Shown: positions 172-17,672 of the stretch, piece after piece
How the letters are laid out: each line of letters begins with the position of its first letter
Position numbering within the stretch: position 1 is the stretch's first letter
Origin: a virus
Lineage: Duplodnaviria; Heunggongvirae; Uroviricota; Caudoviricetes
Reading direction: 5' to 3' (one strand)
IMG/VR virus record: IMGVR_UViG_2529292998_000008
DNA length: 17,672 nt
Translations under genes and position numbers: made by a program
The notes under the pieces: model-generated
Told to the model about the DNA's origin: nothing
Databases searched by the model: none
Seen by the model: only the letters and a program-made list of their open reading frames with translations

Positions 172-194
172 GGAAGAGCAGGAGAGCAAAACAG

Positions 195-662
195 ATGCTT
201 AAGACAAACAGTCTGCGAGAGTCCATGCTTCATGGGTGTCGGTGGTGCCAGGCTAATCCCGAGAAATTCACCATTTTCGTGGAGAGCGGCAACATTGAAA
301 CGACCGGAGAAGCGCCCTCGTTTGTTTACCGCTATCAGATGGTGATGTTTGTCATGGATTACGCCGGAGAGCTGGACGACCTCACGCTGCCGCTGCTGGC
401 GTGGTTATCCGAAAATCAGCCACAGTTGTTGCTCAATCCGGAGCGTAATCAGGACATCAAATTTTCTGCCGTTATCAATGACGATGACAGCGCCGATCTC
501 CTGTTTACGCTCCCCCTGCGGGAACGCGTTCGCATCACGCGCAACAGTCAGGGCACACCGCAGGCAGAACACCTGCCGGAGCCAAAACCCCGTCTGCCCT
601 CTTCCGAAGGCGACTGGTCGCATGTATTCCAGGATGTGACGTGGGGTGAAAGCGATGGATAA
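195..662 (+). CDS. R: Tail completion protein, P2 gpR-like
   Basis: 155 aa ORF; AGGAG-like RBS upstream of ATG 195; position immediately upstream of the S/V/W/J block; size matches P2 gpR. Confidence 0.7.
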   Translation: MLKTNSLRESMLHGCRWCQANPEKFTIFVESGNIETTGEAPSFVYRYQMVMFVMDYAGELDDLTLPLLAWLSENQPQLLLNPERNQDIKFSAVINDDDSADLLFTLPLRERVRITRNSQGTPQAEHLPEPKPRLPSSEGDWSHVFQDVTWGESDG

Positions 663-1290
663 GGCATTCACCAGCGTGGATGAAACCTTTGAGGCTATCC
701 GCGACAGCCTGAATCAGCAGGCCATCAATAACATCGCCAGAAAGCTGGCACAGGATTTACGTCGCGCCCAGCAGGCACGTATCCGATCACAAAAAGCGCC
801 GGACGGGACCGAATGGACACCACGCAGACGCCGCGTAACCCGGATACAGGAGCGCATTCGCTTTATCTGGAATAACGAAGCACGCACGCTGAAAAACTGG
901 CATCACGACACGGGGAAATACGGGCGAACCATTACCGGGTGGGATGAGGATAAAAACAATATCCGCACGTTTTACCGGGATGACATCGACCGTTTTCTGG
1001 AAATACGCACCCGGCGCATCAACCAGGACAGCACAAAGCGCGTCCCCATGTTTGTAAAACTGCGCACCGCCCGCTACCTGAAAGCCCGTGCAGATGCTTC
1101 CGGTGTGACGGTGGGTTACAGCGGCGTGGCCGCACGTATTGCCCGCGTTCATCAGTTCGGTGAGCGCGATCAGGTTGCGCCGGGCATTTTCACCGATTAC
1201 CCGGTACGTGAGCTGCTGGGTATCAGCCAGGCAGATGAGCGCCTGATTTATAACACGGTGCTGGGCCGGATTGCGGAGGCTGTACGGTGA
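646..1290 (+). CDS. S: Virion morphogenesis / tail completion protein, P2 gpS-like
   Basis: 214 aa ORF overlapping R by 17 nt (translational coupling); synteny R-S-V. Confidence 0.7.
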   Translation: MKAMDKAFTSVDETFEAIRDSLNQQAINNIARKLAQDLRRAQQARIRSQKAPDGTEWTPRRRRVTRIQERIRFIWNNEARTLKNWHHDTGKYGRTITGWDEDKNNIRTFYRDDIDRFLEIRTRRINQDSTKRVPMFVKLRTARYLKARADASGVTVGYSGVAARIARVHQFGERDQVAPGIFTDYPVRELLGISQADERLIYNTVLGRIAEAVR

Positions 1291-1868
1291 GCGCAGAACT
1301 CATGCGACTGCTGAGCAATATCATCCGCACCGGGATCATCTCTGAAGTTGATGAGAAGTCCTGGCGCGTGCGCGTTCGCAGCGGCGAACTGGAAACAGGC
1401 TGGCTGCGCTGGAACACCACGCGCGCGGGAGCCTTCAATGTGTGGCTGCCGCCATCACCAGGCGAACAGGTGGTAATTGCCTGCATTGGCGGCAACCCGG
1501 AAACCGCCATGATAATTGGCAGCCTGTGGAGTGATGCCAGTCCGGCCCCCGGCAAAAGCCTGAAAGAAATCGTGATCAGCGCGCCGGACGGCGCGGTGTT
1601 CCGCTACGACGCAGACGCTGGCGCACTGAGCGCCAGCGGCATGAAAACGGCCACTTTACAGGCATCCGTCAGCGTGAAACTGGACACGCCCGTCGTGGAA
1701 TGCACAAACCTTCTGAGAACGGCGACGCTTGACGTCACAAAAGGAGGAAAGATGAGCGGCAATATCACGCACAGCGGCGGCAACTTCACCTCAAACGGCA
1801 TCACAGTGCATACGCATAAACACGGTGGCGTGAAAGGCGGCAGCGATTCGACAGGAGGCCCGCAGTGA
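1287..1868 (+). CDS. V: Baseplate assembly protein V (spike), P2 gpV-like
   Basis: 193 aa; ATGA-type overlap with S stop; synteny and size typical of gpV. Confidence 0.75.
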   Translation: MSAELMRLLSNIIRTGIISEVDEKSWRVRVRSGELETGWLRWNTTRAGAFNVWLPPSPGEQVVIACIGGNPETAMIIGSLWSDASPAPGKSLKEIVISAPDGAVFRYDADAGALSASGMKTATLQASVSVKLDTPVVECTNLLRTATLDVTKGGKMSGNITHSGGNFTSNGITVHTHKHGGVKGGSDSTGGPQ

Positions 1869-2215
1869 CAACCCGCTACACAGGAATGAATCCGGACGGG
1901 ACGGGAAACCTGAACGATATGGAGCACCTGAAACAGTCAGTCAGGGATATCCTGATCACCCCGCTGGCAAGCCGGGTTATGCGACGGGAATATGGCAGCC
2001 TTGTGCCTGATTTGATTGACGAACCCATGAATAACACAACTCGTCTGCAATGCATGAGTGCTGCCGTGATTGCGCTGACACGATGGGAACCCCGCATTGC
2101 CCTGGACGCCATCGACGTTGTCTGGAAGGCAGGAGGCCGCGCCGGGGTGACGCTGTCGGGCACTGTCATGCAGACCATGCAGAATGTTGAATTAACCATC
2201 ACGCTGAGAGAGTAA
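1865..2215 (+). CDS. W: Baseplate wedge protein W (gp25-like)
   Basis: 116 aa, overlaps V stop; size and position match P2 gpW. Confidence 0.8.
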   Translation: MTTRYTGMNPDGTGNLNDMEHLKQSVRDILITPLASRVMRREYGSLVPDLIDEPMNNTTRLQCMSAAVIALTRWEPRIALDAIDVVWKAGGRAGVTLSGTVMQTMQNVELTITLRE

Positions 2216-2218
2216 ATC

Positions 2219-3115
2219 ATGCCTGCTGTTGACCTTTCCCAGTTACCGGAACCCGCCATCATCGCGAAGCCTGATTTTGAGGCAATTCTGGCTGACACAA
2301 AGGCCATGATGATTGCGTCCTATCCTGCCGAACAGCGTGAAGCCGTCTCCGCCGCGCTGGAGCTGGAATCGGAACCCCTGAACGTTATCGCTCAAACCAT
2401 GTCTTTTCGTGAAATGCTGTTACGCCAGCGGGTTAACGAGGGCGCACGCGCCTGCATGTTAAGCCACGGTTCAGGGACAAACCTGGACAACCTCGCGGGC
2501 AATATGAACACAAAGCGCCTGGTTATCACTCCGGCAACGGATACCACCGACGCGGTGATGGAGAGCGACACCTCGCTGAGATTGCGGGCGCAACGGGCGT
2601 ATGACGGCCTGAGTGTTGCTGGCCCGTCAGGTGCATACGAGTATTTTGCACGCAGCGCCAGCGGTCTGGTGCGTGATGCGCGGGCCATCAGCCCGTCTCC
2701 GGCCTGTGTGACGGTTTCCATCCTGTCCACTGAAGGCGACGGCACAGCAACGGAGGCGTTGCTTAATACCGTTCGCGCCGTTCTGAATGCAGAGGATACC
2801 CGCCCGGTGGCCGACCGCCTGACCGTACAGAGCGCCAGAATCGTGACATGGCGGCTGAATGCAAAACTGTACTTTTACCCCGGCCCGGAATCCGAACCTA
2901 TTCTGGCCGCGGCTGAATCGTCGTTCAGGAAGTGGCTGGCTGAGCAGGGGCTTATCGGTCAGGACGTGGCGTTGTCCGCCATTGCTGCCGCACTGCATGT
3001 GCACGGTGTGCAACGCGTGGAGATAATCGAACCCACACAGAATATGGCCATCAGCGACATACAGGCGGCGCGCTGTGAGTCATTCACCATCAGCGAAGGT
3101 GGACGCAATGAGTAA
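2219..3115 (+). CDS. J: Baseplate protein J
   Basis: 298 aa (P2 gpJ about 300 aa); follows W by 3 nt. Confidence 0.8.
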   Translation: MPAVDLSQLPEPAIIAKPDFEAILADTKAMMIASYPAEQREAVSAALELESEPLNVIAQTMSFREMLLRQRVNEGARACMLSHGSGTNLDNLAGNMNTKRLVITPATDTTDAVMESDTSLRLRAQRAYDGLSVAGPSGAYEYFARSASGLVRDARAISPSPACVTVSILSTEGDGTATEALLNTVRAVLNAEDTRPVADRLTVQSARIVTWRLNAKLYFYPGPESEPILAAAESSFRKWLAEQGLIGQDVALSAIAAALHVHGVQRVEIIEPTQNMAISDIQAARCESFTISEGGRNE

Positions 3116-3716
3116 TTCGTTGTTACCACCATCAGCCAGCAATTTCATGCGTTGTGCCGAAGCCGTCGGAACACGCATTACAGACATTCCGGTAGACCTC
3201 AACACGCTGTGGTCGCCGGACACCTGCCCGGTGCATCTGCTGCCTTATCTCGCCTGGGCGTTTTCCGTTGACCGCTGGGATCGCAACTGGCCGGAAGAGA
3301 CAAAGCGACAGGTGATTCGTGATGCATGGCTGATACACCGACACAAAGGGACCATCAGCGCACTGCGAAGAGCCGTGGAGCCTCTCGGCTACCTGATTGA
3401 AGTAAAGGAGTGGTGGCAACTCAACGAGGAGCCGGGAACATTTCGCATTGTTGTCGGAGTACTTGATCAGGGCATCACCGATGAAATGCATCAGGAACTT
3501 GAGCGCCTTATTGCGGATGCAAAACCAGTAAGTCGCCATCTGACGGGGCTGGCGATCAGCCTGAGTGTGAACGGAAAGATTTTCGTTGGTACGGGATGCT
3601 ATCACGGCGATGCCCTGACGGTTTATCCCTACACCCCGGAGTCCATTATTGTCGAAGGGGACTATTTCCCTGCCCCGGCCATTCATTTAATTGATAATCT
3701 GAGAGTAAACGCATGA
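3108..3716 (+). CDS. I: Baseplate / tail-fiber-attachment protein I
   Basis: ATG at 3108 with AAGGTGGA RBS, overlapping J stop; the ORF track's 3075 start is a GTG extension; stop overlaps H start (ATGA). Confidence 0.75.
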   Translation: MSNSLLPPSASNFMRCAEAVGTRITDIPVDLNTLWSPDTCPVHLLPYLAWAFSVDRWDRNWPEETKRQVIRDAWLIHRHKGTISALRRAVEPLGYLIEVKEWWQLNEEPGTFRIVVGVLDQGITDEMHQELERLIADAKPVSRHLTGLAISLSVNGKIFVGTGCYHGDALTVYPYTPESIIVEGDYFPAPAIHLIDNLRVNA

Positions 3717-5383
3717 CAGTGAAATACTACGCTATTCTGACTAATCAGGGCGCGGCACGACTGGCTAACGCGACGATGCTCGGCAGTAAACTGAATCTGA
3801 CGCAAATGGCCGTTGGTGATGCAAATGGTGTGTTACCAACACCAGACCCTGCACAAACAAAACTGATTAACCAGAAACGCATTGCACCGCTGAATCTTCT
3901 GAGTGTTGACCCTAACAATCAGAGCCAGATTATTGCGGAGCAAATCATCCCTGAAAACGAGGGAGGATTCTGGATCCGTGAGATTGGTCTTTATGATGAT
4001 GAAGGTGCACTCATTGCGGTGGCAAACTGCCCGGAAACGTACAAACCGCAGTTGCAGGAAGGCAGTGGACGCACCCAGACTATCCGCATGATTCTGGTTG
4101 TCACGAACACCGAAGCCATCACGCTGAAAATCGACCCGTCTGTGGTTCTGGCAACCCGCAAATATGTGGATGATAAAATATCAGAGCACGAACAATCACG
4201 ACGTCACCCGGACGCCTCGCTGACCGTAAAAGGTTTTACTCAGTTAAGCAGTGCAATTAACAGTGAATCAGAAACACTGGCCGCAACACCGAAAGCGGTT
4301 AAGGCTGCATATGACCTGGCTAACGGGAAATATACCGCCCAGAACGCCACCACTACACAAAAAGGGATTGTTCAGCTCAGTAGCGCCACGAACAGCACGT
4401 CTGAAACGCTGGCAGCGACACCAAAAGCTGTTAAGGCGGTAATGGATGAAACGAACAAGAAAGCACCATTAAACAGCCCGGCACTGACCGGAACGCCAAC
4501 AACACCAACAGCGCCACAGGGGGCTAATAGTACCCAGATCGCAAGCACGGCTTTCGTTATGGCCGCGATTGCCGCACTTGTAGATTCGTCACCTGATGCA
4601 CTGAACACGCTGAACGAACTGGCTGCGGCGCTGGGCAATGACCCGAATTTTGCGACCACCATGACTAACGCGCTTGCGGGTAAGCAACCGAAGAATGCCA
4701 CCCTGACGGCGCTGGCGAAGCTTGCTACATCAGCAGATAAACTCCCATATTTTACAGGGGCAGATCGTGCCGCGTTAACCGCGTTGACAAGTGTTGGACG
4801 TGCCATTCTTGGTAAAACCAGCACTCAGGGAGTTCTTGATTACCTTGGTTTGGGGGAAGGCTCTGCACTGCCCGTTGGTGTACCTGTTCCGTGGCCCTCA
4901 GCCACTCCACCAACGGGCTGGCTGAAATGCAACGGCGCAGCATTTTCTCCTGAAGATTACCCCAAACTGGCACAGGCTTACCCCGCGAACAAATTACCGG
5001 ATCTACGGGGTGAATTTATCCGTGGCTGGGATGATGGACGTGGCTTGGATGCTGGGCGTGCCTTGCTAAGTCTTCAGGATGACTCTTTTGAAGCGCACAG
5101 GCATGAGTCCTTTTTTTATGCGGGTATTTCACGTAATGAGATCCCATTAAAAAATCTTCCAAGTTCAGACGAGATGCTGACTTTAAGTTCCACAACTAAT
5201 GCCTTGTCCCCGGACGATATTGATGCCACCAACTCGTTAATTGGTAATGACGATTACAACTGTCTTATCGAAGGGAATAAAAATAACAAACGAACAGCGA
5301 CAGGACTGAGTACCAGTATTGTCGGCACAGCAGAAACACGCCCCCGCAACGTTGCATTCAATTACATCGTAAGAGCCGCATGA
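3713..5383 (+). CDS. H: Tail fiber protein H: constant N-terminal part fused in the current orientation to C-terminal cassette C1
   Basis: 556 aa; N-terminus typical of P2 H / Mu S tail fibers; contains two SETLAATPKAVK-type fiber repeats; the C-terminal ~180 aa (from ~4847) is homologous to four downstream cassettes. Confidence 0.9.
   Translation: MTVKYYAILTNQGAARLANATMLGSKLNLTQMAVGDANGVLPTPDPAQTKLINQKRIAPLNLLSVDPNNQSQIIAEQIIPENEGGFWIREIGLYDDEGALIAVANCPETYKPQLQEGSGRTQTIRMILVVTNTEAITLKIDPSVVLATRKYVDDKISEHEQSRRHPDASLTVKGFTQLSSAINSESETLAATPKAVKAAYDLANGKYTAQNATTTQKGIVQLSSATNSTSETLAATPKAVKAVMDETNKKAPLNSPALTGTPTTPTAPQGANSTQIASTAFVMAAIAALVDSSPDALNTLNELAAALGNDPNFATTMTNALAGKQPKNATLTALAKLATSADKLPYFTGADRAALTALTSVGRAILGKTSTQGVLDYLGLGEGSALPVGVPVPWPSATPPTGWLKCNGAAFSPEDYPKLAQAYPANKLPDLRGEFIRGWDDGRGLDAGRALLSLQDDSFEAHRHESFFYAGISRNEIPLKNLPSSDEMLTLSSTTNALSPDDIDATNSLIGNDDYNCLIEGNKNNKRTATGLSTSIVGTAETRPRNVAFNYIVRAA
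4228..4450 (+). repeat. Two copies of a ~29-aa phage tail fibre repeat inside H (…SSA.NS.SETLAATPKAVKA…)
   Basis: Near-identical peptide and nucleotide blocks at ~4228-4314 and ~4361-4450. Confidence 0.7.
4833..4858 (+). repeat. Candidate crossover site s1 (hix/gix-like, H constant/variable junction)
   Basis: On the opposite strand reads CCTTCCCCCAAACC-AA-GGTAATC, resembling the AAACC-NN-GGTTT core of Hin-family sites; start of the ~210-bp block shared by all cassettes. Confidence 0.55.
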
Positions 5384-5402
5384 AAACGTTGGTTTGGGGA
5401 AA
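5377..5402 (+). repeat. Candidate crossover site s2
   Basis: GCATGAAAACG-TT-GGTTTGGGG at the C1 stop / C2 junction; direct orientation relative to s1. Confidence 0.55.
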
Positions 5403-5822
5403 GGCTCTGCGCTGCCCGTTGGTGTGCCCGTTCCGTGGTCCTCAGCAACACCACCAACGGGCTGGCTGAAATGTAACGGCGCAGCATTTTCTTCTGAAAT
5501 GTATCCCGGACTGGCAAAGGCTTACCCCACCAATAAATTACCGGATTTACGGGGTGAATTTATCCGTGGCTGGGATGATGGGCGCGGGATTGATGCGGGA
5601 CGTACCCTGCTTTCAGGGCAGGATGGTACAAGTTTTTCTCATTACGGAGGTAATTTCGACATTGGGTCTGGTCATTCAATCAATAACTATGACCAAATTG
5701 TTTCTAACCAACCAAGCTTTTCCCGTTTTTCATTTGCAGGACCTTCACGAGGTGATGGGGTCAATTATGTAACCATTCGTCCTCGTAATATTGCGTTTAA
5801 TTACATCGTAAGGGCAGCATGA
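5394..5822 (+). CDS. Silent tail fiber C-terminal cassette C2 (no ATG; expressible only after fusion to H)
   Basis: 142-codon frame beginning GKGSALPVGVPVPW…, ending RPRNIAFNYIVRAA*; conserved ~70-aa N-part, unique middle. Confidence 0.65.
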   Translation: MGKGSALPVGVPVPWSSATPPTGWLKCNGAAFSSEMYPGLAKAYPTNKLPDLRGEFIRGWDDGRGIDAGRTLLSGQDGTSFSHYGGNFDIGSGHSINNYDQIVSNQPSFSRFSFAGPSRGDGVNYVTIRPRNIAFNYIVRAA

Positions 5823-5841
5823 AAACGTTGGTTTGGGGGAA
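5816..5841 (+). repeat. Candidate crossover site s3
   Basis: Same GCATGAAAACG-TT-GGTTTGGGGG junction sequence between C2 and C3. Confidence 0.55.
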
Positions 5842-6309
5842 GGCTCTGCACTGCCCGTTGGTGTGCCTGTTCCATGGCCCTTAGCAACACCACCAACGGG
5901 CTGGCTGAAATGTAACGGTGCAGCATTTTCTTCTGAAATGTACCCCAAACTGGCAAAAGCCTACCCCACTAATAAATTACCGGATTTACGCGGAGAATTT
6001 ATCCGTGGCTGGGATGATGGGCGAGGAATTGATGCGGCACGCGCTTTATTGAGCATTCAAAACGGGATGTTGGAAAAACACCGCCATATTGTTGTAGCTA
6101 ACGATGGATATGACACAAAAGATGAATGGGAGTTGGCTACGATTTTCAAAAAAACATATACACAAGGCAGGGGGCTTGATGCCACAAATACAGGAGGGAG
6201 TTTGATTCCATCACCAACGCTTCATTCACGAGGAAGTATTGGTAACACAGGTGGTAGTGAAACCCGCCCCCGCAATATTGCATTTAACTATATCGTGAGG
6301 GCGGCTTAG
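5833..6309 (+). CDS. Silent tail fiber C-terminal cassette C3
   Basis: 158-codon frame GEGSALPVGVPVPWPLATPPTGWLKCNGAAF… ending …NIAFNYIVRAA*; no ATG start. Confidence 0.65.
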   Translation: MGEGSALPVGVPVPWPLATPPTGWLKCNGAAFSSEMYPKLAKAYPTNKLPDLRGEFIRGWDDGRGIDAARALLSIQNGMLEKHRHIVVANDGYDTKDEWELATIFKKTYTQGRGLDATNTGGSLIPSPTLHSRGSIGNTGGSETRPRNIAFNYIVRAA

Positions 6310-6315
6310 TTATAT

Positions 6316-6927
6316 TCAACTGGCTGCTGCCAGTGGTATTTCCGGCAAGTTGATATCTGGTACCATGTTTATATCCATTGCGTTCAGCGCGTCTATATAA
6401 TCCAGCACGGCATTAAGCCGGGTGGTTTCTGCCTGCGTCAACTTCCGCCCGGCCTGCAACTTCAACTGAATCAGACTTATGGAAGCCATTGCCGCATCAG
6501 CCAGTGACTGGCGCTTGGTTTCTGCCGCTTCTACTGCGGCACGATGTTGTGCCTCAGTATCTGTCACCCATTTTTCACCATCCCATTTATCGTATGGTGT
6601 TAACGGGGCGATAGTGGTTGTAGTTTTCGGGTAGTCACCCAGCGCCGTGATTTCTTCGGTGTTTCCCGTGTCAGTGCTATAGACGGTTTCACCACGATGG
6701 TCTGGCGCATACTCCCATGAACTTAAATTCTCCGAACGGCGGATAGCATAGCCCGCTTTATGTGCGCCCGGGGCATCTAAACAGGAATTTGCCGGAATAC
6801 CGACACCCACAGCAAGATATTCAGTTGATTCGGAAATATATTCCCGTGTCTCACCATCATAGTTATAAACGACGATGTTTCCTGCCTGTACGGCAATAAG
6901 GTCATCATTTAATATCGCGTTATTCAT
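6316..6927 (-). CDS. Tail fiber assembly chaperone (Tfa; Mu U / P2 G / TfaE family)
   Basis: 203 aa; C-terminal half recognisably similar to E. coli TfaE (…DHRGxTVY…KWNG/DGxxWVxDTEA…); start ATG overlaps the stop of cassette B (TAATG). Confidence 0.8.
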   Translation of the reverse strand: MNNAILNDDLIAVQAGNIVVYNYDGETREYISESTEYLAVGVGIPANSCLDAPGAHKAGYAIRRSENLSSWEYAPDHRGETVYSTDTGNTEEITALGDYPKTTTTIAPLTPYDKWDGEKWVTDTEAQHRAAVEAAETKRQSLADAAMASISLIQLKLQAGRKLTQAETTRLNAVLDYIDALNAMDINMVPDINLPEIPLAAAS

Positions 6928-7385
6928 TATGCGGTTCTCACAATATAATTGAAGGCAATATTGCGTGGGCGGTTTTCATTCCCATCTGAGGATTCCGTTC
7001 TGTATTGACTGGTAAATCTACCGTTAATTGCACCTTGCCGGACGGCGTTATCTGTCGACAACAGACTATCCCCTCTTTTGTCATTTGGCACCAGTACCGT
7101 GTTATCCCACGCATCCCATGACCGAATATTATGATAATGACTTCCTGTTAACCACCCCTGCATGCTTAAGATGCCCCTTCCGGCATCCACCCCGCGCCCA
7201 TCATCCCAGCCACGGATAAACTCACCGCGTAAATCAGGTAATTTTAACGTTGGGTAAACCTTTGCCAGATTTGGGTACATTTCAGAAGAAAATGCTGCAC
7301 CGTTACATTTCAGCCAGCCCGTTGGTGGTGTGGCTGAGGGCCATGGAACAGGCACACCAACGGGCAGTGCAGAGCCTTCCCCCAA
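6927..7385 (-). CDS. Tail fiber C-terminal cassette B (inverted orientation, translationally coupled to tfa)
   Basis: 152-codon frame GEGSALPVGVPVPWPSATPPTGWLKCNGAAF… ending …NIAFNYIVRTA*. Confidence 0.65.
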   Translation of the reverse strand: MGEGSALPVGVPVPWPSATPPTGWLKCNGAAFSSEMYPNLAKVYPTLKLPDLRGEFIRGWDDGRGVDAGRGILSMQGWLTGSHYHNIRSWDAWDNTVLVPNDKRGDSLLSTDNAVRQGAINGRFTSQYRTESSDGNENRPRNIAFNYIVRTA

Positions 7386-7402
7386 ACCAACGTTTTCATG
7401 CT
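7377..7402 (-). repeat. Candidate crossover site s4 (inverted relative to s1-s3)
   Basis: Plus strand reads TTCCCCCAAACC-AA-CGTTTTCATGC, the reverse complement of the s2/s3 junction. Confidence 0.55.
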
Positions 7403-7959
7403 GCCCTTACGATGTAATTAAACGCAATGTTGCGTGGGCGGTTTTCGTTTGCAGTTGGAACAATTTTTGAAGCATCAAGGCCAATCACTTTTGGGTAAAC
7501 AGCGCCGTCTGTCCTTTCTGTCACCATACTTCTGACTAAGGAGAAATAACTATTGTTTGTTGAGGAATTTAAAGGCACCACTGCCCCCTTAAACGAGCCT
7601 ACTGATTCCCATATTGAATAATTTTCAGTGTTTACAGTCTTGAACTCACCATAGATATTACGTATGGCATCACCTTGAGCGGATAATATTGTTCTCCCCG
7701 CATCCGCACTACGTCCATCATCCCAGCCACGAATAAATTCACCCCGTAAATCCGGTAATTTATTGGTGGGGTAAGCCTTTGCCAGTCCGGGATACATTTC
7801 AGAAGAAAATGCTGCGCCGTTACATTTCAGCCAGCCCGTTGGTGGTGTTGCTGAGGGCCACGGAACGGGCACACCAACAGGCAGCGCAGAACCTTCCCCC
7901 AAACCAACGTTTTCGTTTTTATCCCTACCTATACCAACTATGTATTTTTCACGAAACAA
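7396..7959 (-). CDS. Tail fiber C-terminal cassette A (inverted orientation, nearest the invertase)
   Basis: Frame …VGLGEGSALPVGVPVPWPSATPP… ending …NIAFNYIVRAA*; the ORF track's N-terminal extension to a TTG at 7959 is probably not translated. Confidence 0.6.
   Translation of the reverse strand: MFREKYIVGIGRDKNENVGLGEGSALPVGVPVPWPSATPPTGWLKCNGAAFSSEMYPGLAKAYPTNKLPDLRGEFIRGWDDGRSADAGRTILSAQGDAIRNIYGEFKTVNTENYSIWESVGSFKGAVVPLNSSTNNSYFSLVRSMVTERTDGAVYPKVIGLDASKIVPTANENRPRNIAFNYIVRAA
7894..7919 (-). repeat. Candidate crossover site s5 (inverted; sits just upstream of the invertase promoter/start)
   Basis: Plus strand CCTTCCCCCAAACC-AA-CGTTTTCGTT at 7894-7919. Confidence 0.55.
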
Positions 7960-7973
7960 AGAGGATGTTTTTT

Positions 7974-8573
7974 ATGCAAATTGGCTATGTTCGTGTGTCA
8001 ACAAATGACCAGAACACGGATTTACAACGCAATGCACTGAACTGCGCAGGATGTGAACTGATTTTTGAAGATAAAATCAGCGGAACGAAATCAGCCAGAC
8101 CGGGATTGAAAAAACTGCTCAGAACGCTATCAGAAGGAGATACGCTGGTTGTCTGGAAGCTGGACAGACTGGGCAGAAGTATGAAACACCTGATCACGCT
8201 TATTGAGGAATTGCGGGAAAAAGGTGTTAATTTCCGTAGTCTGACGGACAGCATTGACACATCAACACCCATGGGGCGTTTCTTTTTTCACGTCATGGGG
8301 GCTTTAGCCGAAATGGAACGTGAATTAATTGTAGAGCGTACACTGGCCGGGCTGGCAGCAGCACGCGCACAAGGACGCATTGGCGGACGTCGCCCGAAGT
8401 TGACAAAAGAACAACACGAGCAAATAGCGAGGCTGATTAAAAACGGTCATGACAGGAAACAACTGGCGATCATTTACGACATCGGCATATCGACGATTTA
8501 TCGTTATCACCCTGTAGGCGATATACAGGCTGAAGAAACAACCAGGCAGACTCAGGAAAATGAAAACCGCTAA
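7974..8573 (+). CDS. Site-specific DNA invertase, serine recombinase of the Hin/Gin/Cin/Pin family
   Basis: N-terminus MQIGYVRVSTNDQNTDLQRNAL with catalytic Ser in the VRVST motif; C-terminal HTH (GISTIYRY); GAGGA RBS 8 nt before ATG 7974; the ORF-track start at 7779 is an upstream in-frame extension. Confidence 0.9.
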   Translation: MQIGYVRVSTNDQNTDLQRNALNCAGCELIFEDKISGTKSARPGLKKLLRTLSEGDTLVVWKLDRLGRSMKHLITLIEELREKGVNFRSLTDSIDTSTPMGRFFFHVMGALAEMERELIVERTLAGLAAARAQGRIGGRRPKLTKEQHEQIARLIKNGHDRKQLAIIYDIGISTIYRYHPVGDIQAEETTRQTQENENR

Positions 8574-8592
8574 TCTGACCATTAGCGGTTTT
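8562..8592. terminator. Bidirectional intrinsic terminator between convergent invertase and U
   Basis: Perfect inverted repeat AAAACCGCTAAT-CTGACC-ATTAGCGGTTTT, with A-run on one side and T-run on the other. Confidence 0.6.
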
Positions 8593-8599
8593 GCGTTAA

Positions 8600-9094
8600 T
8601 CAAAACAGCCCTTTAACGGAGCTGGCCGCGCTGTTAAGGGATGATGTGACCTTATCTTTGAAGCCGGACAGCATATCACTGAACGATGAGGATTGCAGGC
8701 GCTCCCGCAAATCCTCATCACAGCGTTCAAGAGTCAGTGAAAACTCTATCTTTTTCGCCTTACCGTAGCGATCAAACTCGGAGCGGGTCGTATTCGTTCC
8801 GGTCAGGACATACATGCCGTAAATCTGCCCGACACCATCAATCAGAGGCCAGGGGCGTCCTGTATATGCCTGCGTGGTCAGCAACGAAAGCGACACTTCG
8901 CCACCTGTAATTTCAGGATAAAGCACACCAGAAAGAACGATGCGATCATCGCCTGCCCCGATATACTGCCAGCTTGCTGAACGGTTAACGCGTTCATTTT
9001 TCACATGCCGCCAGCTTTTGTTTTGCTGTAACTGCTGATGCGGCAACGTACGCAGCTCAAAAACAAACATGCCGTAGATCATCATCATGGCCAT
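8600..9094 (-). CDS. U: Tail protein U, P2 gpU-like
   Basis: 164 aa; recognisable similarity to P2 gpU (…GMFVFxxxTLPHQ…GVLYPExTGG…WPLxDGxGxIYGMYV…). Confidence 0.85.
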   Translation of the reverse strand: MAMMMIYGMFVFELRTLPHQQLQQNKSWRHVKNERVNRSASWQYIGAGDDRIVLSGVLYPEITGGEVSLSLLTTQAYTGRPWPLIDGVGQIYGMYVLTGTNTTRSEFDRYGKAKKIEFSLTLERCDEDLRERLQSSSFSDMLSGFKDKVTSSLNSAASSVKGLF

Positions 9095-9100
9095 GACTCC

Positions 9101-11917
9101 TCAATCTTTATCGTAAAAACTGCCACGCCCGGCACGGGCGCGCCGTTCCATTTCTGCCCTGACCATTTCACCGACCAGTTTCGCCAGTTCGCGGGGATTC
9201 TGCGTAACAACGTTATGCAGATGAACATGAATTTCACCACCAAATCCGGAGGCAACAGGCTCCCGGTTACGGGAAGTTACAGGAACTGATGCCACTGGAG
9301 ATCGTATGGCCTCCGCCACCGGGCGGGAGCTGGCCGCAACAACAGGGACCAGCGCCGGAGGCAGCGGAGCCGGGACCACGGGGGTGATATTCATTGCGGG
9401 GGCAGGCTTACTGACCTGTGCAATCTTCCGCTCCTGCCACTCCCCACGAACAGCAAGTGCGCGGGGCAGGTTCTTAAAGACAATATCGCCGGGGCCAATA
9501 CGTTTTTTTGTCTCATCAACCAGCTTACCTGTGTTATCAGCAATTTTGCTGAGTCTGCGTAGCGTGCCGGTATTGCTGTCTGTGAGCGGTTTGTTGTCTT
9601 TGGGTTTATCGCCTCCGGTGCCATTGCCATTTTCCGCAGACTTCGGCGGATTGATTTTCGCAATGTCTCCCTGAAACAGAGCAACCTTGTCCTGAAGAAT
9701 GGCCGCACGCTGTGCGTCTTCGATTTTCTTTCTCGCCCTTTCCGCTTCATCCGGAAGCACACCGAGTTTTTCAAGTATCCACGCCAGCGTATCCAGCAAC
9801 ATTTTTGCAGGCGTCAGAACAAGCTGTAGCGCGCCACCAAGAGCGTTACCGAATATCTCGCCAGCACTGGTACATTTATCCAGCGTTTCCTTGCTGGACT
9901 CCATCGGTGACAGCAGCGATTTAAACCAGTTAAACACCTGGCTGATCCCGCTTCCGATTGCGTCAAAAACAGGACCAAACCGTTCAAAGGTTTCACGCAA
10001 CGGGTTCAGCCTTTCCATAATCCCGCTGAACACCCCGGCAAAAAATGCCCTGATGGGATCCCAGTATTTCCAGATAAGAACGGCAGCTCCGGCAAGCGCA
10101 GCCACGATAAGACCAACCGGACTGAACAGCGCCCCGATAGCGCCTCCCAGCAAAGAAACGGAACCCGTCACCATTCCCCACAGCGCAGGCAACACCCTGA
10201 CGACATTCATTGACCGGGTAAGAATGTCAAAACCAAGACGCAGGGTGGCCAGCTTCCCGTAAAGCACCCCAATAACCAGTGACAACGAGCCAATCGTTGC
10301 AGTCATTGCCAGCAACGCACCGCCTGCTATCAGTAGCTGGCGCGTCAGTACCGGATGGGCCTGCGCCAGCGAGGTGATTTTTTCAAGCACCCGCGTGAGC
10401 CACTGCGTGACAGAACGCAGCGGACCGTCAACCAGATCACTGATGCGAATACGAAGACCTTCCCATGCGCTGTCGAGATTTTTCAGGTCCCCATCAAGAT
10501 TATCGGCCATTACTTTTGCAACGCGATCGGCCTCTCCCCTTGCCCCCTGCAATTCTCTGGTCAGTTTTTGCAGCTCTCCTGAACCAGCCGCCGCAACAAG
10601 CGTCTGCAAACCAACGAACGCCTCTTCTCCGGCGATGTCCTTGAAGAAGGAGACCTGGTCCACCTGTCCGTATTTTTGTGTCGCCTTATAGAGATCAAGC
10701 AGCACATCCTCCATCGGGCGCATTTTGCCTCTGGCGTCAGCAACTGACACCCCCAGCTCTTTCAGTGCATCAGCCGCAGCTTTTGGCGGTGATGCAAGGC
10801 GGGACAGACTTGCGCGCATGGCCGTGCCAGCATCGCTTCCGCGAAGACCATTATTGGCAAGCATCCCGGCCATAGCCGCCGCTTCTTCAAGACTGATACC
10901 AAGTTTTGCGGCAACCGGACCGGTATACTTCATGGTTTCGCCCAGCGCGCGTAAATCAGTATTGGTCCGGGTGAATGCCGCTGTCAGCGTATCGCCAACC
11001 CGGTCCATTTGATCGGCTGTCAGGTTGAACTGTGTGAGGATATTGGAGCCTATATCCGCCGTCTCGCCGAGTTCGACGCCACCTGCCAGCGCCATATTAA
11101 GAACACCGGGCAATGCGGCCTGAATGGCCTGCGGAGTAAAACCAGCCATTGCCAGAAAGCTCTGCCCACTGGCGGCATCACTCGCAGTAAACTGTGTTTC
11201 AGAGCCAAGTTTTAACGCCTGCTCACGCAGCGCCTTAAACTGCGGGCTGTTTTTGTCGATTCGCGTCAGTGCCTGAACGCGGGACATCTCTTTGCCGAAC
11301 CCGATCGCAGGCTGCAAAAAACGCCCGGCAGCATAGCCGCCCGCCGCTGCCGCACCAATTGCCAGCGCACCACCTGTTTTCAGTTTTCCCGCGGTTTCCT
11401 GCGCGCGCGAATACCGCTCACGCGCCCGCGTTACACGCGCAAGCGCCTGCCGTTCGCGTTCAAGCTGGTTGTTGTACTGTTCGGTGCGTCTGATGGCCTG
11501 CTGGATGGTGTTATCGCTGCCTGTCAGGGAAATGCCGTGGCGTTTCAGCTCTCCGCCAAGCTCCCGCATTTTCTGAATTTCCCGTGTGCGCGATTCATTC
11601 AGGCGTTCAAGCCGGGTGCTTAACTGCTGCATCAGCTTTTGTTGTTTTTCGCTGAGCACTGTACCCGTGCGTTGTAACTGATTAAGGGCGTTAAGCTGGC
11701 GTCGTGCTTTCACGATACCCGCATCCGCTTTACTGACAGCGTCGCGGGCGCGCTCAAATGATCGCGCCTGACGCTCGAGATTTTTGATCGCCCCCTGCGT
11801 TCGCTGGATGGAGTCACCAAACTGCCCCATCAGGCGGCGGGCGTTTTCGGCAGGCCGGGTCAGCCTGTCAACGGCGCTGAAAGCGACCCGGATATCAAGA
11901 GTCTTCATTGTCTGCAT
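9101..11917 (-). CDS. T: Tail tape measure protein T
   Basis: ~940 aa, coiled-coil-rich N-part and hydrophobic central segment; between E' and U. Start ambiguous: first ATG at 11917, in-frame GTG at 11944. Confidence 0.85.
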   Translation of the reverse strand: MQTMKTLDIRVAFSAVDRLTRPAENARRLMGQFGDSIQRTQGAIKNLERQARSFERARDAVSKADAGIVKARRQLNALNQLQRTGTVLSEKQQKLMQQLSTRLERLNESRTREIQKMRELGGELKRHGISLTGSDNTIQQAIRRTEQYNNQLERERQALARVTRARERYSRAQETAGKLKTGGALAIGAAAAGGYAAGRFLQPAIGFGKEMSRVQALTRIDKNSPQFKALREQALKLGSETQFTASDAASGQSFLAMAGFTPQAIQAALPGVLNMALAGGVELGETADIGSNILTQFNLTADQMDRVGDTLTAAFTRTNTDLRALGETMKYTGPVAAKLGISLEEAAAMAGMLANNGLRGSDAGTAMRASLSRLASPPKAAADALKELGVSVADARGKMRPMEDVLLDLYKATQKYGQVDQVSFFKDIAGEEAFVGLQTLVAAAGSGELQKLTRELQGARGEADRVAKVMADNLDGDLKNLDSAWEGLRIRISDLVDGPLRSVTQWLTRVLEKITSLAQAHPVLTRQLLIAGGALLAMTATIGSLSLVIGVLYGKLATLRLGFDILTRSMNVVRVLPALWGMVTGSVSLLGGAIGALFSPVGLIVAALAGAAVLIWKYWDPIRAFFAGVFSGIMERLNPLRETFERFGPVFDAIGSGISQVFNWFKSLLSPMESSKETLDKCTSAGEIFGNALGGALQLVLTPAKMLLDTLAWILEKLGVLPDEAERARKKIEDAQRAAILQDKVALFQGDIAKINPPKSAENGNGTGGDKPKDNKPLTDSNTGTLRRLSKIADNTGKLVDETKKRIGPGDIVFKNLPRALAVRGEWQERKIAQVSKPAPAMNITPVVPAPLPPALVPVVAASSRPVAEAIRSPVASVPVTSRNREPVASGFGGEIHVHLHNVVTQNPRELAKLVGEMVRAEMERRARAGRGSFYDKD

Positions 11918-12424
11918 TCCCGCTGCGAAGTGCCGCCCGCTCACGCCAGCTAACCACTTCGCCGGGCGTCATCATGAAGATTTCGGCGGGCGACCAGTTA
12001 AAAATGGCGGCAATATCCGCCACAAAGTCTTCTATGTGCTCAAAGCACACAACCGTGATCAGGCTTCCGTCGCCTGTTCGCTCTTCCCGCCAGAGTCCGC
12101 ACCGCTCAAAAAATTTACGGCAACCACACATAACTGAATAAAATCACGGGATGCCATTTTTTTGATCGTCACTTCATCCAGTCGTGGCGAGGTCACGCGT
12201 GACAGCAGCGTAAACATGGATTCCGCTTTCAGATTCAGCACATCAGACAGCGACAAATCTCGCAGAGATCCAGCCTGCTCAATAGCCCCGGTGATCTCCA
12301 CATACGTGATTTTTTCGCCGCCTCGCTCAATTGGTTGGGTAAGTTTTACGCCACGCTCACTGGTTTCTTTCACAGTGTCAGTAACTACCGTGTTTTCGGT
12401 ATCGATGTTTTTCGTCTCTTTCAT
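11895..12424 (-). CDS. E': Tail assembly chaperone E+E' (product of a programmed -1 frameshift)
   Basis: The -1 frame downstream of a T-TTT-TTG slippery heptamer (plus-strand 12107-12113) stays open to 11895 and overlaps the T start, as in P2 E/E' and lambda G/GT. Confidence 0.7.
12059..12424 (-). CDS. E: Tail assembly chaperone E
   Basis: 121 aa; AAAGGAG RBS before the ATG at 12424; lies between FII and T. Confidence 0.8.
   Translation of the reverse strand: MKETKNIDTENTVVTDTVKETSERGVKLTQPIERGGEKITYVEITGAIEQAGSLRDLSLSDVLNLKAESMFTLLSRVTSPRLDEVTIKKMASRDFIQLCVVAVNFLSGADSGGKSEQATEA
12107..12113 (-). promoter_or_regulatory. Slippery heptamer for the E to E' -1 ribosomal frameshift
   Basis: Minus-strand sequence AAT-TTT-TTG-AGC in the E frame. 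Confidence 0.6.
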
Positions 12425-12478
12425 CAGGAAACTCCTTTCAGTCAGAGGCGACGCACTGCGCCGCCTGCATATTACTTA

Positions 12479-12991
12479 TCAGCCAAGCCCGAGCGCGGAA
12501 CGGATGCGATCGGGCACAATGTCCTTGCCGTCCTTCCGGTAGATGTGGTTCAACAGGTCGATTTCCCACAGCGGGCGATCGTTAACGCTCAGCTTGTAGT
12601 AGGTGTTTTTGACAGCGTAAGTGTGTGATGTGGCTTCGCCCTGTTTGGCCTCCCCCATATCAATTTCCGTCACACGCCCGCGCATCTCGATTTCATACAG
12701 ATCGCTTTCTGCATCGGTGTAGTATTCACCCGCAAAACGCAGCAGCGTGCCGTCAATCGTGCCGCCATATTTAAGGAACAGCGCACGAACAGCTCCCCCC
12801 ATGACAAAGCTCGCATCAAGCGCGGAGTCGTCCAGACCGAGATCAATACTTACCGCCCCCATCATGCCACCACCCCGGTAGCTGTCGGTTTTGCGCGTCA
12901 GCTTAGGCAGAGTGACGGACGTCACCTTACCCACTTCGTTTTCACCATCCACAAACAGCGTAAAAAAGCGAAGATGTTTTGGTACAGCCAT
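12479..12991 (-). CDS. FII: Tail tube protein FII
   Basis: 170 aa; recognisable similarity to P2 FII (…VTLPKLTRK…YRGxGM…DLGLDD…RFAG…MRG…EIDxGExKQGE…). Confidence 0.9.
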   Translation of the reverse strand: MAVPKHLRFFTLFVDGENEVGKVTSVTLPKLTRKTDSYRGGGMMGAVSIDLGLDDSALDASFVMGGAVRALFLKYGGTIDGTLLRFAGEYYTDAESDLYEIEMRGRVTEIDMGEAKQGEATSHTYAVKNTYYKLSVNDRPLWEIDLLNHIYRKDGKDIVPDRIRSALGLG

Positions 12992-14175
12992 CAGGCACCT
13001 CCCAGCACCGCAAATGCGGGACCAAAGAATTCATCAGTAAACGTCTGGTAAAGCTCCATGTCTTCCAGTGGCGGAACGGGCGTATATTTGTAGCGAATAC
13101 GCACACGTCCCTGACGTAAATCCGTGGTGCCGTTATCCACCACGTCATACCAGCACTCCGCGCCAATCAGTTTCCCGGCAGTAACCAGCGAATCCAGTTT
13201 TGCCCTGATGGCACTGATAACATCCTTCACGTTCGCAGGCGTCAGTGGACTGTCGATGGTTTCAAACTGCGCTTCCGCAATTGAATCAGCCAGCACCTGT
13301 GCGGTTCGGGTATACACCTCAAAGATGTAGGCGTTCGTTTCCGGTGTGCGGTTGCCCCAGAAGCGGAACCCGTTACGACGAATAATGGTCGTGATTTCTT
13401 TGTTGTTGAGGCTGTTGGCATCACTGTCTTCGGCCTGTAACGACCAGAACACATGCCTCGACATCCCCAGCACATTTTTAACCGGAACGTTGGACAGCGA
13501 TTTGTGCCAGCCCTGCTCATGGTCAATGTACGCACGAAGGCCGCACGCATAAGCAGGCGCGGGGAACGTTTCGTTTTTGCCACTTTTCGGGTTGTAGGCG
13601 ATGAAGTCAGGCCATAAGAGCATCACCTCACGTTCGTTGAATTTCTGGCGGTAGGTAATCGCCTCAGCCATCGTGTTACAACCATGACATGCGGCATACA
13701 CAAACGCGCGCAGTTTACCCGCAATCACGCACAGGGATTTTGTCACCGCCTCCGTGTCCAGCTCCGGCGCGGCCAGAATACGCGGACGGTATCCGATGCT
13801 TTCATCCTGCTCTGCAACAAGCAGCGCATACATCCCCGTATAGCTGCCGTCAGATTCAGAACCACCGATAACCAGTTGATCCTGCGTCTTTCCGTTTTCT
13901 TCTTTGTGTTCAGCCACGCGAACGACGATCACCTTTGTGCTCACCTGGTCTGCGATGGCCTTAAGCGCACGATAAAGCGTCCCCGTTGTCCCGCATTTTC
14001 CCAGCACGTCATTGACGCGGGTCAGCAGTGTGGGCTTGTTCAGCGGGAACAGCTTCGCGTCCGCATCATCCGCCGTTGCCACGATACCGATAACGCTGGA
14101 ATCAACATCGTTAATCGCTGTTACCAGGTCGGTACTTTCCGTAACACGGGCACCATGAAAACGAGTTTCACTCAT
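12991..14175 (-). CDS. FI: Contractile tail sheath protein FI
   Basis: 394 aa; strong similarity to P2 FI (…DADAxxFPLNKP…WPDF…QGWHKxLSNV…GFRFWGNRT…YTPVPPLE…); AAGGGG RBS. Confidence 0.9.
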   Translation of the reverse strand: MSETRFHGARVTESTDLVTAINDVDSSVIGIVATADDADAKLFPLNKPTLLTRVNDVLGKCGTTGTLYRALKAIADQVSTKVIVVRVAEHKEENGKTQDQLVIGGSESDGSYTGMYALLVAEQDESIGYRPRILAAPELDTEAVTKSLCVIAGKLRAFVYAACHGCNTMAEAITYRQKFNEREVMLLWPDFIAYNPKSGKNETFPAPAYACGLRAYIDHEQGWHKSLSNVPVKNVLGMSRHVFWSLQAEDSDANSLNNKEITTIIRRNGFRFWGNRTPETNAYIFEVYTRTAQVLADSIAEAQFETIDSPLTPANVKDVISAIRAKLDSLVTAGKLIGAECWYDVVDNGTTDLRQGRVRIRYKYTPVPPLEDMELYQTFTDEFFGPAFAVLGGA

Positions 14176-14332
14176 AGCTTCAGCCCCTTGTATCCGTTAA
14201 ATGATTCGGCAACAATCATCACCCACCACGCGCGTAATCTCACCCCTGCGCCGTTCTCCCGCCACGGCGACAACAAAAAGCAGTAACCCCCTCCGCACGC
14301 ACATGCGACCATGCCGCACAGGGAGGGAGCAG
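14176..14332. promoter_or_regulatory. Divergent intergenic region between the FI operon (minus) and D-ogr (plus); presumed late promoters
   Basis: 157-bp non-coding gap between divergent start codons; no confident -35/-10 or Ogr-type TGT-N12-ACA motif found by eye. Confidence 0.35.
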
Positions 14333-15442
14333 ATGACCGACACCACCATGCAATTGCTCAGTCAGGGCACAGACCCCGTGAAAATGCCGGATTTTGATAT
14401 TCTCGCGGAGGGTAAAACGCTGTCAGGCGTGGCAGAGTGCCTGATGAGCCTGTCACTGACCGACAACCGGGGATTTGAGGCGGACCAGCTCACCATCACG
14501 CTGGATGATGCGGATGGTCAGTTGCAGCTACCGCCACGGGGCGCGCGCCTGACGGTTCTCATTGGCTGGAAAGGAGAACCGCTGACAGAAAAAGGCACTT
14601 ACATTGTTGATGAAATCGCTCACGAAGGACCGCCGGACAGGCTGACTGTTTCAGCCAGAAGCGCAGATTTTCGGGATGAATTTAACGTTAAACGTGAGGT
14701 GTCCTGGCATGATGTGACCGTTGAGCGTGTGGTATCCGCCATCGCTCATCGGTATGGTCTGAAACCGCAAATCAGCGAAATGCTGATGGATATCGAAATC
14801 GACCACGCCGACCAGACCGAAGAAAGCGACATGTCCTTCCTTACGCGCATGGCGGAAATGCTGGGCGCAATCACCACGGTAAAAAGCGGTAATCTGTTAT
14901 TCATCATGCCCGGCGGTGGCGTGAACGCACAGGGCCAGCCGTTGCCATCGTTTGCCATCACACGCAGCAGCGGCGATCGCCATCAGTTCCGCATTGCTGA
15001 CCGCGAAGCGTATACGGGGGTACGCGCTTACTGGCTTGATCTTAATTACGGGAAAAAGAAAAAAGTCAGCGTGAAACGCCGTAAACCGCCAAAACCCAAA
15101 AAGGAGAAAAGCAGCAGCCGTGAAGGTGATTATATGGAAGGCGCGGAAGGCAATGTGTTTGTGTTACGCAAGACTTATCAGAACGAGCAGACAGCAAGAC
15201 GCGCAGCGGCGGCAAAGTGGCAGCAACTACAACGCGGAGCCGCATCATTCTCCATCACGCTGGCGCGTGGACGTGCAGAACTCTACCCCGAAATGCATGG
15301 CACGGTAACAGGATTTAAAAGCGAGATTGATAATCAGGACTGGATCATTGCAAAAGCCGAGCACACCATTGATAACAGCGGTTTTACCACGCAGCTTGAG
15401 CTTGAGGCAAAAATCCCGGAATGGATAGCGGAAACAGAGTGA
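14333..15442 (+). CDS. D: Tail protein D
   Basis: 369 aa from the ATG at 14333, preceded by an AGGGAGGG RBS (the ORF track extends to 14201 but lacks an RBS there); position before ogr as in P2. Confidence 0.8.
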   Translation: MTDTTMQLLSQGTDPVKMPDFDILAEGKTLSGVAECLMSLSLTDNRGFEADQLTITLDDADGQLQLPPRGARLTVLIGWKGEPLTEKGTYIVDEIAHEGPPDRLTVSARSADFRDEFNVKREVSWHDVTVERVVSAIAHRYGLKPQISEMLMDIEIDHADQTEESDMSFLTRMAEMLGAITTVKSGNLLFIMPGGGVNAQGQPLPSFAITRSSGDRHQFRIADREAYTGVRAYWLDLNYGKKKKVSVKRRKPPKPKKEKSSSREGDYMEGAEGNVFVLRKTYQNEQTARRAAAAKWQQLQRGAASFSITLARGRAELYPEMHGTVTGFKSEIDNQDWIIAKAEHTIDNSGFTTQLELEAKIPEWIAETE

Positions 15443-15482: not shown

Positions 15483-15743
15483 ATGTTCCGTTGTCCGCTT
15501 TGTGGCGCATCTGCCCGTATCCGCACCAGTCGTTCGGAAAATGATTCAAACACCGTACGGAAAAAATATTACCAGTGTAACAACCTGGAATGCGGCATAA
15601 GTTTCTCAACACTGGAAGCTTTCCATAAATTCACATCGAAACACGCCCCCGGCGTTCACTCTTCAGAAGGTATCCCGTGGCATGAGTTGCCAGCTTCACA
15701 CAGGGGAAACAATCAGATGAGTTTGCCTTTATCTCAGAATTAA
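15483..15743 (+). CDS. ogr: Late-gene transcriptional activator, Ogr/Delta zinc-finger family
   Basis: 86 aa, MFRCPLCG…YYQCNNLECG… Cys-X2-Cys…Cys-X4-Cys motif like P2 Ogr; AGGGAGG RBS. Confidence 0.85.
   Translation: MFRCPLCGASARIRTSRSENDSNTVRKKYYQCNNLECGISFSTLEAFHKFTSKHAPGVHSSEGIPWHELPASHRGNNQMSLPLSQN

Positions 15744-16379: not shown

Positions 16380-17672
<1,293 letters not shown>

Follow-up and report, generated by a model that had tools for sequence, protein, structure and literature searches.

How many receptor-binding tips can a single tail fiber gene present, and what exchanges them? This question is raised by a 17,672-nucleotide stretch of DNA from a virus of the Caudoviricetes (IMG/VR record IMGVR_UViG_2529292998_000008; the whole stretch is called the window below). 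A preliminary description, made from the letters alone, had noticed a repeated block in and beyond its tail fiber gene, H, and had proposed that a neighboring DNA invertase shuffles interchangeable tips onto one constant fiber shaft. We followed up this proposal with repeat and domain searches, comparison with related genomes, and a model of the permitted inversions. We conclude that an Escherichia coli P88-like prophage very likely carries here an active host-range switch that works by multiple inversion, as in the Cin/Gin/Pin/Min systems.

Five repeat blocks open five fiber tips

The five-copy block of the preliminary description was recovered in our repeat search, with three copies in direct and two in inverted orientation. 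These blocks of approximately 215 bp are 78–94% identical, start at 4847, 5391, and 5830 when direct and end at 7388 and 7905 when inverted, and differ from one another at 15–32 of 215 positions. The search delimited a direct repeat family at 4795–5058, 5339–5602, and 5778–6041 (78–90% identity) and six inverted pairs of 215–282 nucleotides, 83–94% complementary, that link the direct copies to 7157–7446 and 7694–7914. A five-fold repeat of this kind is far above chance expectation.

Each block opens one tip of 143–178 codons, and the translations bear out the unique middles and common C-terminus that had been described. The tips begin with GLG(E/K)GSALPVGVPVPW... and end with RPRN(I/V)AFNYIVR(A/T)A. 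Pfam identifies a Collar domain (PF07484) in all five (E ~1e-14 each). Because the collar part matches the T4 gp37 and gp12 fiber tips in solved structures, each cassette looks like a complete receptor-binding head rather than a fragment. Directly after the collar, an HxH motif is found in Sv0 (AHRHES), B (KHRHIV), and C2 (SHYHNI) and not in A or C3; the corresponding regions of the window, 5060–5110, 6070–6100, and 7120–7150, lie in the tip middles. We take HxH to be the metal-binding site of T4 fiber tips.

Within the window, Sv0 is the only tip joined to the H shaft, and the other four cassettes (A, B, C2, and C3) have no ATG, in agreement with the earlier statement that four lack a start codon. 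Open reading frame (ORF) finders and the Prokaryotic Genome Annotation Pipeline (PGAP) start the cassettes at an in-frame TTG located inside the crossover site. In this way, they are called as separate "phage tail protein" genes at 5394–5822, 5833–6309, 6927–7385, and 7396–7959. Such separate calling of promoterless cassettes is an annotation artefact, and the same kind was flagged earlier by Forde et al. (PMC4134206).

Among database proteins, the 378-residue shaft recurs at 98–99% identity, joined to many different tips. The best 120 protein matches to H mostly bear Sv0 and other, unrelated tips; among them, B and C3 (96–100% identical) sit on another, longer shaft with 422–434 constant residues of about 88% identity. 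Because B and C3 also occur on this other H shaft, cassettes seem to move between fiber genes. The window's own shaft with B or C3 was not seen among these 120 matches, which therefore represent cassette sharing rather than isomers.

Opposed crossover sites beside a serine invertase

Five crossover sites accompany the blocks (Table 1). All are 26 bp long with a 12-TT-12 layout and an identical TT core, and their tip-side half reads GGTTTGGGG(G/A)AA: GGTTTGGGGGAA at four sites and GGTTTGGGGAAA at site 2. The right half-site encodes the first codons of a tip. The stop codon of the cassette before it falls in the left half-site, except at the two array ends, where this half is fixed flanking DNA. 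Because the TT core of site 1 falls within codon Leu378 of H, every tip joins in frame. The two opposed sets of sites that had been described are present, sites 1–3 on the plus strand and sites 4 and 5 on the minus strand, so that the invertible segments overlap as in a Min-type system.

The array is followed by an invertase gene, and its assignment to the Hin/Gin family is upheld. The protein contains Resolvase (PF00239, E=2e-51) and HTH_7 (PF02796, E=1e-12) domains, matches the Mu Gin structures 3UJ3/4M6F over residues 1–185 (E=1e-91), and carries its catalytic serine in the motif YVRVSTNDQ. Its identity is 74% with P1 Cin, 87% with the P88 enzyme, and 94% with the invertase of a P1-like phage-plasmid. 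A cluster look-up of the invertase did not return a "Min" or "Pin" name by which its placement could be refined. The distance of 15 bp between the last site and the gene given previously is wrong, as the start codon lies 54 bp past site 5.

Table 1. Features of the tail fiber array and its surroundings (positions in the window).
Feature	Position	Strand	Remarks
Constant H shaft, 378 codons	3713–4846	+	N-terminal fiber domain PF12571 and Phage_fiber_2 repeats PF03406
Site 1	4833–4858	+	TTCTTGATTACC TT GGTTTGGGGGAA; fixed, H constant/variable junction
Tip Sv0, 178 aa	4847–5383	+	Expressed now as H C-terminus; Collar domain
Site 2	5377–5402	+	CGCATGAAAACG TT GGTTTGGGGAAA; Sv0 stop codon in left half-site
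Silent tip A, 143 aa	5391–5822	+	No ATG; translation, Collar
Site 3	5816–5841	+	AGCATGAAAACG TT GGTTTGGGGGAA
Silent tip B, 159 aa	5830–6309	+	One end of double-headed segment
tfa, tail fiber assembly (chaperone) gene	6316–6927	-	Caudo_TAP PF02413, E=9e-31
Silent tip C2, 153 aa	6927–7388	-	Other end of double-headed segment
Site 4	7377–7402	-	AGCATGAAAACG TT GGTTTGGGGGAA on minus strand; inverted
Silent tip C3, 169 aa	7396–7905	-	Translation, Collar
Site 5	7894–7919	-	AAAACGAAAACG TT GGTTTGGGGGAA on minus strand; inverted, fixed outer boundary
Serine DNA invertase, 199 aa	7974–8573	+	MQIGYVRVSTNDQ, catalytic Ser9
Putative recombinational enhancer	7992–8063	+	Invertase 5′ coding region; coding nucleotides 19–90 as in P1 cin
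12-bp-stem hairpin, likely terminator	8563–8592		Between invertase and convergent gpU
FI-FII-E-T-U tail operon	8600–14175	-	Converges on invertase
gpD	14201–15442	+	Pfam
Host gene serS	16380–17672	-	Beyond prophage

The same cassettes occur in several orders

If the array inverts, the silent tips should be found joined to the shaft in other genomes. We searched for the four predicted fusions of the H shaft with A, B, C2, or C3 as chimeric DNA against complete E. coli genomes. All four junctions predicted in the preliminary description are present there as uninterrupted matches. H::A is intact in 10 of the 12 genome records among the matches listed (about 98% identity), and H::B is 100.0% identical over 980 nucleotides in strain 266917_2. 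H::C2 followed by the tail fiber assembly gene tfa is intact in five chromosomes (about 97%), including one E2348/69 assembly, and an H::C3-like fusion occurs in strain GPEC1031 (95.4%). C3 itself is found in plus orientation at 100% identity in three of the loci that we fetched (L016, L017, and L019).

We then read cassette order from the fetched loci by mapping cassette-specific probes onto them. Independent assemblies carry the five cassettes, all at 100% identity, in four or more orders. With a minus sign marking inverted elements, order 1 (Sv0 A B tfa- C2- C3-) is that of the window and a human-gut metagenome contig; order 2 is Sv0 A C3 B tfa- C2-; order 3, Sv0 C3 A B tfa- C2-, is found in locus L017; and order 4, B tfa- C2- Sv0- A- C3-, in strain 266917_2. 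The cassettes of orders 2 and 3 are 100% identical to those of the window. A four-cassette derivative was found in two orders, and two assemblies of E2348/69 differ by H::A B tfa- C2- in one and H::C2 tfa+ B- A- in the other, with 0 mismatches in both segments. With the same cassettes in this many orders and breakpoints at the sites, the proposed combinatorial shuffling is well supported.

An artefact could produce some of this picture if the assembly of a mixed population had created or mis-ordered the cassettes. Lysogen populations are indeed mixtures, assemblers yield spurious alternative contigs at such loci (PMC4134206), and one possible case, described below, is the record of a P1-like plasmid that has 13 sites and a duplicated cassette. 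However, the window's order recurs in the independent metagenome contig, the same set is present in complete genomes, each cassette has a unique middle, and every order seen fits an inversion-only grammar. We regard an artefact as exceedingly improbable. Assembly collapse of the repeats, which the preliminary description had named as grounds for giving up the proposal, is rejected because the independent contigs agree.

The inversion-only grammar was formalized as a breadth-first search in which sites consist of tail and tip-start halves and only inversions between opposed sites are allowed. This model reaches 48 arrangements and five alternative H proteins. Together with the fusions in genomes, it supports the claim that up to five tips can be displayed on one shaft. 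Of the 48 arrangements, 12 express Sv0, 12 A, 12 C3, 6 B, and 6 C2, and tfa is co-directional with H in one half (24/48) and antisense in the other (24/48). All observed orders belong to the 48-state set, with that of 266917_2 two inversions away from the window. Applied to three sites, the rule yields four states, as published, and applied to six, 240 states. The Min system of plasmid p15B presumably has six mix sites and 240 isomers.

Crossovers fall near the core

The repeated blocks are sufficiently long and alike for RecA, and the orders could alternatively have arisen by RecA-dependent homologous recombination between the inverted copies, with the invertase irrelevant or inactive there. 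The positions of the crossovers bear on this. When the window and 266917_2 are divided at the TT cores, the segments are identical at 542/542, 437/437, 515/515, and 1557/1559 nucleotides, and half-site markers (CGCATG versus AGCATG; GGGGAAA versus GGGGGAA) stay with their own segments. Segments are unchanged up to the core although the blocks are divergent, which confines the crossovers to a few tens of bases around it. Specifically, the two inversions between the window and 266917_2 crossed within approximately 24 and 36 nucleotides of the core, for which we estimate a joint probability of roughly 1–2% if crossovers were uniform over the homology. Crossovers this near to the core are a prediction of site-specific exchange and would be unlikely for random homologous ones.

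Two relatives do carry traces that speak for homologous exchange. In cassette A of E. coli PO06021, block positions 10, 15, 27, and 49 (window 5391–5440) are of C3 type, as expected of a crossover inside the block. In 266917_2, two positions of the C2 block, 53 and 57 (window 7332 and 7336), are of B type; they are the sole differences in the 1559-nucleotide double-headed segment and look like a short gene-conversion tract between two inverted blocks. Against RecA as the maker of the orders stand the intact segments described above, an identical core and cix-like half-site kept in all sites, and the frequent inversion of homologous loci from enteropathogenic E. coli (EPEC) and strain EC958 within single cultures (PMC4272514, PMC4134206). 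We therefore find it very unlikely that RecA, and not the invertase, generated the orders.

The PO06021 locus (NZ_CM129868.1) lacks C3 and, apart from cassette A, is 100% identical to the window. Its hybrid cassette suggests that C3 was lost from an order 3 isomer, in which it lies immediately upstream of A, when the directly repeated 215-bp blocks of C3 and A underwent homologous crossover. Ordinary recombination between the conserved blocks would thus also add and remove cassettes. In strain 160-11H1, Sv0 occurs twice in one five-cassette array (3361–3636 and 5784–6059), once fused to H and once inverted, which suggests cassette duplication or exchange between arrays.

The array might also be a frozen relic, inherited from an active ancestor by a prophage that is now defective or whose switch no longer works; the window shows just the tail genes and the right prophage end. 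Yet the intact invertase ORF recurs without any change on 215 contigs, all five sites are intact, and the 100% identity of the isomers means that inversions took place very recently in the lineage. A relic is highly improbable on these grounds. Judging from these genome comparisons, we take the system to be real and recently active in this lineage.

A model for tip exchange

We propose that the invertase pairs any two oppositely oriented sites among the five, cuts at the TT core, and inverts the intervening DNA. Each site would consist of a "tail" half and a "tip-start" half, and since site 1 is fixed in Leu378, each inversion that uses it would put a different promoterless tip on the shaft. 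The invertible DNA would comprise three single-headed segments (Sv0, A, and C3) and one double-headed segment (B-tfa-C2). Each tip is predicted to form a complete T4 gp12/gp37-like collar and head, in which an N-terminal collar and a C-terminal strand are conserved and the middle varies. Presumably, each tip recognizes a different surface receptor, so that the virions shed by a lysogen would vary in host range.

By analogy with related invertases, the reaction probably requires Fis bound to an enhancer in the 5′ coding region of the invertase gene. Positions 7992–8063 are identical at 57 of 72 nucleotides to the enhancer annotated in P1 cin. Matches to the Fis consensus lie at 7996–8010 and 8044–8058 (coding nucleotides 23–37 and 71–85), with centers 48 bp apart, and cin has the same arrangement. 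This similarity is consistent with a Fis-dependent enhancer in the invertase gene.

Several points weigh against the interpretation of the locus as an active, invertase-driven host-range switch. The anatomy of the array and the existence of natural isomers with breakpoints at the sites are matters of observation, but we infer current switching in this strain from its relatives, and the receptor specificity of the tips is likewise a prediction. The enhancer similarity could merely reflect coding constraint on a conserved N-terminus, and chance alone would produce the degenerate Fis motif about 0.8 times in every 100 bp. One tfa gene accompanies five tips, and half of the isomers have it antisense to H. 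Finally, the PO06021 hybrid and the 266917_2 tract suggest that homologous recombination also acts on the 215-bp blocks, and some rearrangements in the family are apparently not made by the invertase.

A single chaperone gene inside the invertible DNA

The tfa gene, which the preliminary description did not mention, lies within the invertible double-headed segment between B and C2. Its ATG overlaps the C2 stop codon (TAATG), and it follows C2 in every related locus that we mapped. In the window and all five-cassette isomers seen, tfa is antisense to H. That a single chaperone gene, tied to C2, accompanies five tips is the one point of some interest at this locus.

One reading is that tfa is translationally coupled to C2 in the double-headed segment and that the supply of chaperone depends on orientation, an idea that we consider rather unlikely. 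If it were true, either four of the five collar-type tips would fold without a chaperone or tfa would be expressed by read-through from the convergent FI-to-U operon. The switch would then govern fiber competence or Tfa-mediated adhesion in addition to tip identity. It is also possible that silent or expressed tips help the host, for example by receptor blocking, a benefit of this type having been reported for PinQ-driven inversions (PMC12529663).

The hairpin at 8563–8592 is the sole element separating the FI-U operon from the invertase gene, and read-through from this operon would be antisense to the invertase and sense to C3, C2, and tfa. A promoter and terminator scan of 4700–8700 gave fewer promoter-like matches than shuffled sequence, and this hairpin was its only useful result.

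The host prophage

The window is identical to contig AHAW01000084.1 (assembly GCA_000350045.2), with 0 mismatches over the 7383 nucleotides compared. Pfam identifies tail genes gpR, gpS, gpV, gpW, gpJ, and gpI and the fiber gene H (3713–5383) on the plus strand; gpU, the tape measure, tube FII, and sheath FI on the minus strand; and gpD again on the plus strand. This is the P2-type tail and baseplate gene set that marks the Peduoviridae. Phage P88 (Peduoviridae, Xuanwuvirus) has the same gene order and the same two convergent late operons with an invertase between them. Gene content and layout thus agree with the P2-like prophage originally described, and they identify the host element as an E. 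coli P88-like member of the P2 family. Its right end falls between gpD and the host gene serS, an interval that also holds a small ORF at 15483–15743 on the plus strand. In a megablast search against phage records, no phage genome covered at least 80% of the region; piecewise matches were to a P1-like phage, P88-type invertases, and HK97/SfIV tfa.

Relation to known inversion systems

Among the closest known systems is a three-site locus in E2348/69. Its H shaft, invertase, and tfa are 99.1%, 99.7%, and 99.3% identical to those of the window at the nucleotide level, tips A, B, and C2 are about 98% identical, and the site sequences and the double-headed B-tfa-C2 segment are common to both. In an EPEC P2-like prophage, Goldberg et al. 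(2014) described three inverted repeats with inversions of approximately 2,200 and 1,800 bp, and verified by polymerase chain reaction (PCR) four coexisting variants with three alternative C-termini in one culture, a "shufflon" (PMC4272514). The site spacing in E2348/69 fits the published inversion sizes, so the two are very probably the same locus. The window differs in its additional single-headed tips, Sv0 and C3, with five sites, five tips, and 48 isomers compared to three, three, and four.

The Min multiple-inversion system of p15B was reportedly described in 1990 by Sandmeier et al. and by Iida et al. It likewise has a Din-family serine invertase beside overlapping invertible segments, a constant 5′ fiber ORF, and promoterless 3′ ends. 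The comparison with Min that had been made fits, in that the window contains more than two sites in both orientations and a constant ORF fused in frame to startless 3′ segments. Unlike Min, the window has a chromosomal P2-family carrier, a shaft resembling P2 H rather than P1 S, and five sites instead of six. P1-like phage-plasmids served as a sequence proxy for Min. In P1-like plasmids and phages, cassettes have 88–92% nucleotide identity to those of the window, the invertase is 94% identical, and the site consensus is the same. P1-like phage vB_EcoM-673R5 has five sites, and one chromosomal relative has six. The P1-like plasmid NZ_CP196102.1 (92 kb) holds 13 sites, 13 tips, one tfa, and one invertase at 191–7110, with cassette protein WP_072756900.1 annotated twice; this could be a Min-type array of very large size or else a mixed-population assembly.

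Two-site systems, including P1 Cin/C, Mu Gin/G, e14 Pin/P, EC958 Phi2, and P88, share with the window a homologous invertase, 26-bp sites with a 2-bp core, and a crossover within the fiber ORF. They have an enhancer inside the invertase gene, where the window has a putative one. The sites annotated in the P1 record, cixL (CAATCCTAAACC TT GGTTTAAGAGAA) and cixR (TTATCCAATACC TT GGTTTAAGAGAA), both end in ...AAACC TT GGTTTAAGAGAA and have the layout and core of the window sites. In the EC958 Phi2 site, GAGAGATAAACGTT GGTTTGGGGGAA, the tip-side half is identical to that of the window, and inversion of this two-site fiber segment was seen in PacBio reads (PMC4134206). These systems differ in having two sites, two tips, and a separate chaperone gene for each tip, as in P1 and P88, whereas the window has five tips and one chaperone.

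The R64 shufflon likewise provides a constant adhesin gene with several alternative C-terminal segments through multi-site inversion. However, it uses the tyrosine recombinase Rci, as the preliminary description had correctly cautioned, asymmetric sfx sites, and the conjugative pilus adhesin gene pilV, and it is analogous rather than homologous. An R64-type shufflon was rejected as the identity of the locus since the recombinase is a serine enzyme (Pfam Resolvase) and the target is a phage tail fiber. By its description, the FRphi shufflon of an Enterobacter prophage is comparable, with a Gin-type recombinase, three fiber C-termini, and isoform mixtures in long reads; locked variants differ in infectivity, and FhuA is the receptor (PMC13418256). 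It belongs to another phage and has three tips.

What the window adds is an example, naturally validated by relatives with 3, 4, 5, 6, and 13 sites, of arrays that gain, lose, and reorder their cassettes. It also illustrates that promoterless cassettes are routinely mis-annotated and that any assembly captures one of up to 48 states. With five interchangeable collar-type tips, a compact invertase, and its sites, the array could be used to engineer the host range of P2-type phages or tailocins. The novelty implied at first is not upheld, given a three-site member shown to shuffle (PMC4272514), a two-site form (PMC4134206), and arrays of 6 and 13 sites. As relatives have 3, 4, 6, and 13 sites, the number five is not special. 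We conclude that there is little conceptually new in this locus, which is a larger version of a well-known type of switch.

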